Below are positions 7,517 to 52,775 of a stretch of DNA of 64,000 nt, in pieces; position 1 is the stretch's first letter, and the number at the start of each line of letters is the position of its first letter. Where the stretch lies: positions 138,756,001 to 138,820,000 of the forward strand of contig OX597816.1 of assembly GCA_951406725.2 (NCBI GenBank). Direction: 5' to 3'. Below the pieces are notes generated by a model. It did not search any database. It was given only the letters and a program-made list of their open reading frames with translations, and was not told where the DNA came from. This stretch comes from Octopus vulgaris (taxonomy: Eukaryota). The translations under genes and the position numbers were made by a program.

Positions 7517-7553
7517 CTTTTACGTTTCGAGCCTATGGTCTTCTACAGAAAAG
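7517..7553 (-). ncRNA. Minimal hammerhead-like motif, A6U core
   Basis: ctttt-CTGTAGA-a-gacc atag gctc-GAAA-cg-TA-aaag. Confidence 0.5.
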
Positions 7554-9587
7554 TACACAGAAAAAACAAGGAGAAAAAAATGTGTGTAGTAGCTAACGAT
7601 CTATCATGGCGTCTAACTTCGGACATATATATATATATATATATATATATATATATACACACAGGCAGACAGAGAGACACAAATAAATATGCGTACACTC
7701 ATACACACGTACACGCATACATGTGCCCATTCATACAGATACTAACATGACACGAGTATACAGAAAAGAAACGCGAACACACACACACACGCACGCACTC
7801 TCTCTCTCTCTCACACGCACAAACAGAAAAAAGAATTACGTATGCGTTCACATACAGAGAGAGAGAGAGAGAGAGACACACATATACACACGCGCGCGCA
7901 GACACACACACAAACACAGAAATACACGCATATACACATATATTCTCATATTCATATAGGTTTATCAGATCAGATCTACGTATTATAATAACGTATGTCC
8001 TACGCTTCTATATTTTTCATCCTCAGGTACAAACTACATTATTTCTACTTATTTATCTAAAATGCTCCAAAGCATTTAGCTTTTTGTAAAGTACATTTTT
8101 CATATAATACCTTCTTTATTTTTCATATAATACCTTCTTTTTTCTTTTTTATTCAGAGCTTGTCTATATATTGTTCTTAAGTCATATATTCAAATATTTA
8201 AAAGTTTCCAAACAATCGAACACTAGTGCGTTTAACCAAATAATTTAAAGATGCCCCCCTAATTTAGATGGGGTTGGGAAGTGTTACCATCTTCAATACT
8301 TCCTATACACACACACATATTTTATTTTGCTTACTTGTTTTAGTCGAATACACCAACCATTAAGCTAAACACATAAGTGAAATAGTCAAACTTCTTTCGT
8401 CTTTGTTCGCAACCTTTTTAGTGGTTTACTGGCTTCTGTTTACCTCTGCAACATCCACTCTGGGAGGACTTGGAGAGGGAAGAGGAACAATAGAAAGGTG
8501 GCAACAATAAAGAAGTGGTGTTGAACCAGTGCTTGTGTGAGTATTATTGGCGTAATGACCTATCTATCCCATCTATCTTTTATCTTTCACCTGATTCAGT
8601 TATTAGACTGCGGCCATGCTAGGGTGTTCCCTTGACGAATTTTAGTCAAATCAATCGATCCCAGTACATATATATATATATATATATATATATATATATA
8701 TATATATATATATATATATATATATATATATGTATATATATATGTATGTATGTATGTATGTATGCATATCTATCTATCTATCTATCTATCTATCTATCTA
8801 TCTATCTATCTATCTATCTATCTATATATATATATATATATATATATATATATATAATATAACCAAGACAGAGAGAGCAAATTTCAAAGGTCACTGTTCA
8901 GATTCATTTAATACATTTCAGAGCGTCGGAAATACTCCACAGTTTACATAGATATTCCAAATAGGTGAGAAATTTGGTATAAAATGATTTTTAAAGGCAT
9001 CTCGAGCAGGTGCAAATCTGACGACCGTGTCTAGAAGTTATAGGTTGGTATGGGCGAATTGATTCCAACCATAACAATCATATATATTTCTCTCATCAGA
9101 GTTAATCTAAAGGGTTTATAAAAGAGTTATTTAAATCTTAAAGTTTTAAGCAATTGAAGAATTTTTAAAAACTGAATGCTGTGTTAGAATATACTGTTAA
9201 GGCGGATAATATAATAAGACCTAAAAAATACATATTGAATTATGAAGCTATAGAAAATATTGTTTGAACATGAATCCCAGTACATAAAGGGTAACTAGGT
9301 TGAGATTATATAAAATAATTATTTTTGGAAAAAAATTTAATGTTGATAAATATTTATGTCTACAAAGAATAATGACATCCGAGATCTTGTTAACTGAAAC
9401 ATTTTTGTCAGCACGGAGTATACAGATCACTTCTTTTGTGCATAATTTGCAGTTTCTGGTGTGTGTATTGTATGGTGTGGTGTATGTATGTATGTATGTA
9501 TGTATGTATGTATGTATGTATGTATGTATGTATGTATGTATATGTGTATATATATATATATATATATATATATATATATATATATAT

Positions 9588-9937
9588 ATATTTAGTGAGG
9601 GAAGAAATGGAGCTGAACGAAGATTTTACAAAATTCCTTTTTATTATTTTCTACATATGTTTCAAAGGCTGCAAAGTCCCTAATTCGGATTGAATAAGGA
9701 GACCATTTTGCAGCCTTCTCTTCGGGAAAATCCAGGAACTTAAATCTCCAACAAAATGCGCAGCAAGCTTTTCGACAAACGCTCTCTAGGAGCCCATGGT
9801 ATGAGAAGGCTGCAAGATGGTCTCCTTATTCAATCCGAATTAGGGACTTTGCAGCCTTTGAAACATATGTAGAAAATAATAAAAAGGAATTTTGTAAAAT
9901 CTTCGTTCAGCTCCATTTCTTCCCTCACTAAATATAT
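9588..9937. mobile_element. Fold-back element next to (TA)n, PLE pseudo-LTR-like
   Basis: Arms ~9588-9720 and ~9803-9937 are near-perfect reverse complements. Confidence 0.85.
9646..9731 (-). ncRNA. Type I hammerhead ribozyme, U4C core
   Basis: attttc-CCGAAGA-gaaggctgcaa...ttgcagccttt-GAAA-catatg-TA-gaaaat. 6-bp stem I, 11-bp stem II, palindromic stem III. Confidence 0.75.
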
Positions 9938-10169
9938 AAAACTTCAAATTTCCGCACTAAGGCACGGTTTTGAGACCCCATGGTCGTAACCTCAATCGTG
10001 ATTTTTCTGTTGTGATTTTTGCTACCCAGGTATCGGTTATAATTTGAATAATCCGTAACAAGATAATTCATTTATCCATTTCAATAAACATATATATATA
10101 TATATATATATATATATATATATATATATATATATATATATATATATATATATATATATATATATATAT

Positions 10170-10402
10170 AACGGGAAGCTTTATGAAAATAGACAAAAGA
10201 CGAAGGCAGGTTTACGGAAATAAACAAAAGACGAAGGCAGGTGGAATACAAACAAACAATTGTATTAGTATGGCGCTCAGGAAATATAAATAAAACAAGT
10301 CTTTAACGTTTCGAGCCTACGCTCTTCAACAGAAAGAAACAGAGAAGAAACACAGAAAGAAGCAGAGAAAAAAAATGCGTGCAGAGGCTAGCGAATCAAC
10401 AT
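10170..10402 (-). mobile_element. Short (TA)n-embedded element family E
   Basis: Shared terminus gaaaataaacaaaagacgaaggcaggtgg (locally duplicated). Contains the motif at 10300-10337. Confidence 0.75.
10300..10337 (-). ncRNA. Minimal hammerhead-like motif, A6U core
   Basis: tcttt-CTGTTGA-a-gagc gtag gctc-GAAA-cg-TT-aaaga. 5-bp stem I, AACGTT palindrome. Confidence 0.6.
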
Positions 10403-51019: not shown

Positions 51020-51235
51020 AGGCAGTGAGCTGGCAGAATCGTTAGCACGCCGAGCAAAATACTTAGCGGCATTTCATCTGTTTTAAACGCTCTGAGTTCA
51101 AATTCCACAGAGGTCGACTTTGCTTCTCATTCTTTCAGGGTCGATAAGATAAGTAATAGTTAATTACTGGGGTCGATGTTATCGACTTACCCCATTCCCT
51201 CGAACTTTCTGGCCTAATAACAAAATATGAAACCT
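51020..51235 (+). mobile_element. SINE family B
   Basis: ggcagtgagctggcagaatcgttagc head and Nin-like core. Confidence 0.8.
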
Positions 51236-51699
51236 GTATTACCTATCTTTCTGATTCGCTAATCGGGCATTTTACCACTCCATGTAATCCCATGAATCTC
51301 TGTTTACTTAACATCTCTTTCCTATCTCTTGCAATGTAGATTGTAAAATACGATTATTCATTGCCTATGTAACGACCTATTAAAATAGTTACGTGGACTG
51401 GTTAGTTGAATAGAAACGCATAACTAAAGTTCCACGATGTCAGCCGCGTTCCACCGACTCTATCGAGATTGAAAGAAAAGGTGCACGAGATATTCAGCTC
51501 TGATTACGATGTACAAATGTTAGAATCTATTATGAGATTTTGTAAGATGAAACGTGTATAGTATAAGTACATACGTACACTATAGGTATATACATATATA
51601 CATGTATATATATATATATATATATATGTTATATATGCTTTATATATACATACACGCACGTGTGCGTAAGTATATATATATATATATTTATATATACGT

Positions 51700-51960
51700 G
51701 GAGTCACATGGCCAAGTGGTTAAAGCAGGTTCGAATCTCAGACTGGGCGATGTGTGTGTGTTTATGAGCGAAACACCTAAGCTCCACGCGGCTCCGGAAG
51801 AAGGTAATGGCTGACTCTTTCGCCACAACTTTCTCTCTTTCCTCCTACATCTTGCAGTACACCTGCGACGGACCGGCATCCCGTCCAGGTGGGGAACCTA
51901 TACGCCAAGGAAACCGGGAAACCGGCCCTTATGAGCCAGGCATGGCTCGAGAAGGAACAA
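51700..51960 (+). mobile_element. tRNA-headed SINE (family F-type tail)
   Basis: tggccaagtggtt A-box, ggttcgaatc B-box, shared tail. Confidence 0.7.
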
Positions 51961-52639
51961 ACGCATGAAGAGAGATACAGCGATAGAAAGATGTGCGTGT
52001 ACGTGAATATATATGTATATATAATATACGTGCGTGTATCTAAGTAAAAGACGAGAATGAAGGATATCAGGCTTTAATAGCAGACCACAACATTTGAAGA
52101 CTAATATCCTCTATCCTTGTGTCATATTTTTCTTATAGTAATCTTACGCAAAGAGGAGTTCCACATTTGTCTATCCAGCCCTGGAATATACCCTTCTGTA
52201 GGATAACATGTGGTAGCCAAATAAACGATATAAGAACTCCTAAATGCACGTTACAAGCTTTTTACGCGAATTTTACTATATATATATATATATATATATA
52301 TATATACACATATATATATATACATACACATATATATATATATATATATATATATATATAATATATATATATATATATATATACATATATATATATATAT
52401 ATATATATATATATTATATATATATATATATATATATATATATATATATATATATGTATAATATATATATATTATATATATATATGTATACATATATATA
52501 TATGTATATATATATATATATATATATTATAATATATGTATATATATATATATTTATATATATATATATATATATATATTATATATATATATATTATATA
52601 TTTTTTTTACATATATATATGTGTGTATGTATGTATGTA

Positions 52640-52775
52640 GGAGGTGAATTCACAAAAGACGAAGACAGGTGGTGTAGACAACAAACAGATTTATTAGTTT
52701 AACGCGCTCGGGAAGTGAAAAGTTTTAACGTTTCGAGCCTACGCTCTTCCACAGAAAGGAACACAGTAAGAAACT
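52640..52775 (-). mobile_element. Family E element with A6U motif (52724-52757)
   Basis: ttt-CTGTGGA-a-gagc gtag gctc-GAAA-cg-TT-aaa. Confidence 0.7.

Follow-up and report, generated by a model that had tools for sequence, protein, structure and literature searches.

Minimal hammerhead ribozymes have been described from the Penelope-like retrotransposons (PLEs) of animals, where the published model holds that motif monomers lack helix III, that dimers pair through a palindrome and that cutting is weak (Cervera and De la Pena, 2014, PMC4209133). Their role is debated, and the accounts drawn on here in part treat them as RNA-processing devices, as mere passengers or as dispensable (PMC8557442, PMC4209133, PMC6765202; further related literature: 10.64898/2026.07.22.740005, PMC11014351). 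Among endonuclease-bearing (EN+) PLEs, a CX2-5CxxC linker is described as common to Neptune and Nematis (Craig et al., 2021, PMC8557442). Here, we describe a hammerhead motif in repeat family E of Octopus vulgaris, five copies of which lie in a 64,000-nt stretch of contig OX597816.1 (GCA_951406725.2, positions 138,756,001 to 138,820,000; hereafter the window). An earlier note on this DNA had proposed that the family carries a hammerhead-like core with U in place of A at position 6 (A6U), and it had named no parent element. The parent proves to be a PLE, a group with published minimal hammerheads, and, judging from sequence, we lean towards the view that the A6U hammerhead in the pseudo-long terminal repeat (pseudo-LTR) of this Neptune-like element is a slowed but still functional ribozyme.

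All five heptamers lie where the earlier note had placed them, four on the minus strand (7548->7542, 10332->10326, 24272->24266, and 52754->52748) and one on the plus strand (22022->22028), and all five have U at position 6 (T in the DNA). The motifs are as follows.

7517..7552, minus strand: family E minimal type I hammerhead, subfamily EA (CUGUAGA, A17), with one stem II mismatch
10301..10336, minus strand: family E hammerhead, youngest subfamily ET (CUGUUGA, U17), intact
22018..22053, plus strand: family E hammerhead, subfamily EG, decayed (G8U; CU for the palindromic helix III CG)
24241..24276, minus strand: family E hammerhead, old subfamily EC (CUGUCGA, C17)
52723..52758, minus strand: family E hammerhead, subfamily EG (CUGUGGA, U17)

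The five copies align with one another as a single short repeat, at whose end stands (TA)n or a microsatellite like it, and each is laid out as stem I (YUUU), CUGUNGA, an extra A or G, GAGC-4 nt-GCUC, GAAA, CG, U, H, and AAAG or AAAA. The first motif sits in a 5'-truncated pseudo-LTR (about 7433-7612) and the second in a pseudo-LTR (about 10171-10400) that terminates in (TA)n. Two of the copies depart from the intact motif further than the earlier note had brought out: the core of the 22022 copy is broken, with G8 replaced by T (CTGTGTA) and CT in place of CG, and stem II of the 7542 copy has a C-C mismatch (GACC/GCTC). Position 7 reads A, T, G, C, and G in the 7542, 10326, 22022, 24266, and 52748 copies, so that all four bases do occur; however, this is for the most part not free variation from copy to copy, since N7 and N17 differ mainly by subfamily, in fixed form, and the five copies fall into four subfamilies. 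The cleavage-site base N17 is A, T, T, C, and T in the same order, and thus never G, as had been noted.

Over the whole genome, counted as exact matches to a 29-nt family pattern, U occupies position 6 in 16,572 of 17,201 copies (96.3%), A in 182 and C or G in 447, which bears out U6 rather than A6 as the consensus and sets family E apart from the hammerhead rule of A at this position. The motif is not a product of chance, because the U6 pattern has 16,572 matches when read forward and none when read backwards. A control change, T4A, is found in 115 copies genome-wide; the A6 count is close to this number, and A6 copies are therefore near the mutational background, with a 1.6-fold excess over the control (182 vs 115; p=1e-4) that is unexplained. 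Copies with C6 or A6 have no diagnostic changes in common. An ancestral A6 subfamily of E, suggested by three loci (L131-L133), was rejected, as their closest relatives (type E0) are mostly U6 (87 U, 9 C, and 4 A among the first 100 of 266 matches), and a splice-acceptor explanation for U6 was dropped, an in-core TAG being present only in subfamily EA. The 16 core-bearing copies in 100 evenly spaced 10-kb samples comprise 13 with U6, two with A6 and one with C6, from which the copy number of family E extrapolates to some tens of thousands. The density of family E cores in the window (five in 64 kb) is about 5x that of this 1-Mb sample (16 per Mb).

By the features of its longer copies, family E is identified as the 3' pseudo-LTR of an EN+ PLE, and the motif as its putative minimal type I hammerhead. 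Close copies of the 10326 element across the 2.8-Gb genome are 97-98% identical and variably 5'-truncated, and the longer ones extend upstream into an open reading frame (ORF) that ends with a reverse transcriptase (RT) thumb, a CSRPRCRTC linker, and a GIY-YIG domain. Homologs of the ORF product (338 matches, about 50% identity) carry PF00078/PF01541/PF26215. The 1,047-aa open frame of locus L362 matches Pfam RVT_1 above the cut-off (E=1e-7) and GIY-YIG weakly and below it (E=0.007), while a Pfam search with the 297-aa C-terminal part alone gave no match. Locus L349, the sole complete tandem seen, is a partial tandem of a truncated pseudo-LTR, the 5' region, a frameshifted RT-linker-GIY-YIG ORF and a second pseudo-LTR, in which two U6 motifs spaced 4,285 nt apart flank the ORF. 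A U6 motif lies downstream in 19 of 20 ORF-rich loci (18 CTGTTGA, 1 ATGTTGA) and none was detected in the remaining locus. The youngest ORF-bearing copies have U6, and the family was recently amplified with this core. A single ORF with RT and C-terminal GIY-YIG, the partial-tandem layout of L349, and 5' truncation are all characters of EN+ PLEs, and the CX2-5CxxC linker between RT and endonuclease (CSRPRCRTC) and microsatellite targeting ((TA)n flanks) are those of Neptune. The element may accordingly be called Neptune-like, a placement made by linker and TA targeting, both described for Neptune/Nematis.

In L349 (4700-4130, minus strand), the 5' region that follows the upstream pseudo-LTR and precedes the likely start codon has a polypyrimidine tract and CAG, which resemble a retained intron such as other PLEs have. 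Contigs from four runs presumed to be RNA cover the element, with ends and strand not readable from the contigs, and one has a loose end that resembles a cDNA adapter.

To compare the motif with its surroundings, 219 E-type copies from targeted searches and an unbiased sample were clustered into 11 groups, of which seven (6-55 members) were used; the four left out were three groups of 1-2 members and a duplicate of EC with 10 members. Copies differ from their subfamily consensus by a mean of 0.03 (ET) to 0.14 (E1). When changes are placed on a tree of the seven consensuses, only N7 (4 changes) and N17 (3 changes, among A, C, and U) vary among 36 motif columns. None of the other 34 columns changes, whereas 42 of 89 ungapped flank columns do (mean 0.76 changes per column), and the motif is thus more conserved than its flanks even with N7 and N17 included (2/36 vs 42/89 variable columns; Fisher p=3e-6). 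C3 U4 G5, G8 A9, G12 A13 A14, and A15.1-U16.1 are invariant in 7/7 consensuses, all of which also have the ACGU palindrome (dimeric helix III) and the extra base A9a. The cleavage triplet is GUA, GUC, or GUU throughout, in agreement with NUH, and G17 is found in 107 copies genome-wide, under 1%. N7 and N17 are the positions that are free to vary in hammerheads, with N17 avoiding G. That the varying positions are the hammerhead-free ones and that N17 avoids G here supports a functional ribozyme. The changes at N7 (4) and N17 (3) are about as many as in the fastest flank columns and may reflect rate tuning or mutation hot spots.

The ORF provides a second yardstick: between the ET and EG consensuses, 57 of 215 4-fold sites have diverged (0.27; second codon positions 0.05), and for ET against each of two E0 copies the 4-fold divergence is 0.40-0.44. 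Because the motif columns remained unchanged while flanks and 4-fold sites diverged, the comparison indicates that the motif fold stayed under purifying selection after A6U arose. The same figures make it highly improbable that the motif is a dead relic carried unselected by a successful master lineage; a relic is contradicted by 0/34 changed columns against a flank mean of 0.76 and by the simultaneous divergence of the 4-fold sites, and what it is compatible with is the retention of U6 taken by itself. A single neutral site would remain unchanged with a probability of about 0.47, and U6 may therefore be merely tolerated. The proposed selection on a hammerhead with a CUGUNGA core thus stands for the fold, but the retention of U6 itself is not significant.

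The published PLE hammerheads suggest how a slow ribozyme could serve this element. Transcripts of partial tandems would carry two motifs about 4.3 kb apart, and the two motifs of one transcript, or those of two RNAs, would pair through the ACGU palindrome into helix III, with the cut falling after N17 and reverse transcription starting some 90-135 nt further downstream. That distance past the cut site is also where all copies end, and most contain the motif intact, so that the reverse-transcribed template was presumably uncut or re-ligated there. Given such a template and an RT start downstream of the cut, slow cutting may be enough, or even useful, and A6U would be a tolerated rate-lowering change and not a selected gain. 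Natural A6C and U4C hammerheads are reported to keep low activity (PMC3088659; PMC7151607), below 0.1 per min for A6C (PMC3088659).

Several points weigh against a ribozyme that still cuts. Deep mutational scanning found low activity whenever the CUGA turn carried one or two mutations, except for the C3-G8 swap (PMC9901934), and at 0.3 mM Mg2+ A6C brought one ribozyme from 0.30 per min down to 3.6e-6 per min (PMC7151607), from which a change of A6 is by analogy predicted to be costly; PLE minimal hammerheads are described as weak even with the canonical core (PMC4209133). In the ET subfamily, 5' truncations do not accumulate where the cut would fall (5 of 42 loci, with 4 and 6 at two other positions of T/TA microhomology, counted by hand over the first 100 of 605 rows). 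Loop II (GUAG) and three blocks further downstream show the same invariance as the core, and the constraint therefore need not be catalytic. Covariation is absent within family E, where the stems are pairable but invariant. Speaking for the hammerhead instead, in 14 rows spanning E, its sister family F and coral-type families, 97% of cells pair and five of eight pairs change on both sides, values above those of shuffles and slides, with the caveat that the rows are hand-picked and related and that relatedness inflates such scores. The conserved downstream blocks (YGAGCG, ACTAATACA, and ACCTGYCTTCGTCTTTT) are unexplained; for YGAGC, pairing with the stem II 3' strand is conceivable.

The missing truncation footprint in ET and the equal invariance of non-catalytic positions would suit a hammerhead fold that has lost catalysis and persists as a non-cutting cis-element, for example as a site where the RT protein binds or dimerises or as a piece of the pseudo-LTR promoter, an explanation that we consider rather unlikely. 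It gains from Naiad PLEs, which are described as thriving without canonical hammerheads (PMC8557442), and, as a weak point, from ViennaRNA predictions, in which U6 folds pair G5-C15.2 (probability 0.68-0.98 in 6/7 subfamilies, 0.10 or less with A6) and would thereby hide the dimerising palindrome, the A6 versions misfolding otherwise. A non-cutting fold leaves aside that position 17 switches among A, C, and U but avoids G, and that G8, G12, and the C3-G8 pair are kept, which is the pattern expected from cleavage chemistry.

The sister PLE family F, which has stem II and the downstream blocks in common with family E, bears on the same question. Its canonical form has 4,284 exact matches and its U4C form (CCGACGA), fixed in its subfamily, has 7,583; one copy of each lies in the window, as does a further fragment of family E.

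30128..30162, plus strand: sister family F1 hammerhead, canonical CUGACGA core (comparator)
7327..7361, minus strand: sister family F2 hammerhead, CCGACGA (U4C) core (comparator)
6835..6913, minus strand: family E 3'-terminal fragment, truncated below the hammerhead and ending in (TA)n

Two sister lineages have thus independently fixed changes in the CUGA turn, A6U (16,572) and U4C (7,583), and both outnumber canonical F, which also favours a non-cutting element. It is a tentative but real possibility that PLE hammerheads in this genome were selected for a de-tuned or re-purposed turn, given that both lineages fixed their changes independently, kept the other constraints and out-amplified the canonical form.

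The opposite departure from a slowed ribozyme would be one that has compensated U6 and works near full activity in the cell. The compensation could come from a tertiary contact between the GUAG loop and the flank of stem I, from a preference for a particular metal ion, or from a protein cofactor. Loop II and AAAGACU, invariant in 7/7 subfamilies, would fit such a contact, and A6C, strongly impaired in Mg2+, is largely rescued by Mn2+ (PMC7151607). A6 revertants have failed to spread (182 copies, 1.6x the T4A control of 115), but this also fits neutrality, and the published scan reports no second-mutation rescue of CUGA-turn mutants (PMC9901934), which leaves compensation quite improbable. The slowed ribozyme remains the reading that we prefer.

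U6 motifs were also sought in other sequence sets. A metagenome scan gave 23 matches, of which 18 match, in a form with U6, the hammerhead published for the Acropora Neptune element, five of them adjoining RT/GIY-YIG remnants; of the others, four are one GC-rich sequence and one is unpaired. At the Acropora-type loci, the informative unselected neighbours have A6 in 7/7 cases (four more are truncated), and U6 therefore appears to be a minority form of that motif. Six of the metagenome loci (L321, L323, L331, L340, L342, and L343) have adjoining inverted Acropora-type motifs with A6 in one arm and U6 in the other, the cause of which is unexplained. The GC-rich sequence (L322:1497-1540, the same as L327, L334, and L337) lies on a prokaryote-like contig and has CUGUGGA, a fully paired stem II and GAAACGUA; it may be due to chance. 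Five pattern matches in viral contigs were rejected as chance, stem II being unpaired in all.

The expectation that standard descriptors miss the motif holds insofar as Rfam gave no match at E<=10 for a U6 copy, but Rfam misses a canonical A6 sister copy too, and the miss is therefore not due to U6. A weak Rfam Hammerhead_1 match at 43901-43947 (minus strand; 30.2 bits, gathering score 34) resembles a degenerate CUGAAGA motif within another element. Searches with descriptors that require CUGANGA undercount, as variant-core matches total 24,155 (exact) against 4,284 canonical sister-family matches in this genome. A core change that is predicted to be crippling has nonetheless been fixed through at least seven successive mobile subfamilies with the rest of the motif constrained, which makes this lineage a natural experiment on whether PLE hammerheads must cut. 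If PLE hammerheads here were indeed selected for an altered turn, either CUGUNGA is a core that functions in nature or the fold does its work without cutting fast, and most such motifs would escape CUGANGA-based surveys in this genome and probably in other animals as well, those of PLE families reported without hammerheads among them.

Among described systems, the minimal hammerheads of metazoan PLEs are the closest, above all that of the Acropora digitifera Neptune PLE, with which family E shares the pLTR location, the U-rich upstream sequence, a stem I of 3-4 bp, the extra base between 9 and 10.1, the G10.1-C11.1 pair, GAAA-CG-U-H, a palindromic loop-less helix III, and GCUC as the 3' strand of stem II (PMC4209133). 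It differs in U6, as the published alignment has A6 in 51/51 rows examined of 56, and U3-A8 is the one core variant named for these motifs in the text consulted (PMC4209133). With Neptune/Nematis EN+ PLEs, the element shares the C-terminal GIY-YIG, the CX2-5CxxC linker, partial tandems with a 5'-truncated upstream pLTR and (TA)n targets, but canonical hammerheads are called universal in those clades, in contrast to the non-canonical core found here (PMC8557442). The A6C hammerhead of phage Bcep176 likewise has a natural pyrimidine at position 6, but it is one sequence from a phage, for which low activity and a preference for Mn2+ were measured (Perreault, 2011, PMC3088659; Naghdi, 2020, PMC7151607). 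Family E, known from sequence alone, instead has U6, fixed in >16,000 eukaryotic retroelement copies. Lunse, Weinberg, and Breaker reportedly described small PLE hammerhead variants with a short stem III and dimer cleavage in 2017, traits that, by the title and a review passage, are shared with family E. A natural A6U hammerhead was not found in our literature searches, although that study could contain one, and the lone A6U match concerns twister ribozymes (PMC11662667). The comparison with published core variants that the earlier note had called for thus has two sides, since A6U itself was not found in the sources consulted, but rare natural core variants (A6C, U4C, and U3-A8) were already known. 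PLE minimal hammerheads and rare core variants are, then, familiar; what appears to be new is a fixed U6 core in an abundant PLE lineage.

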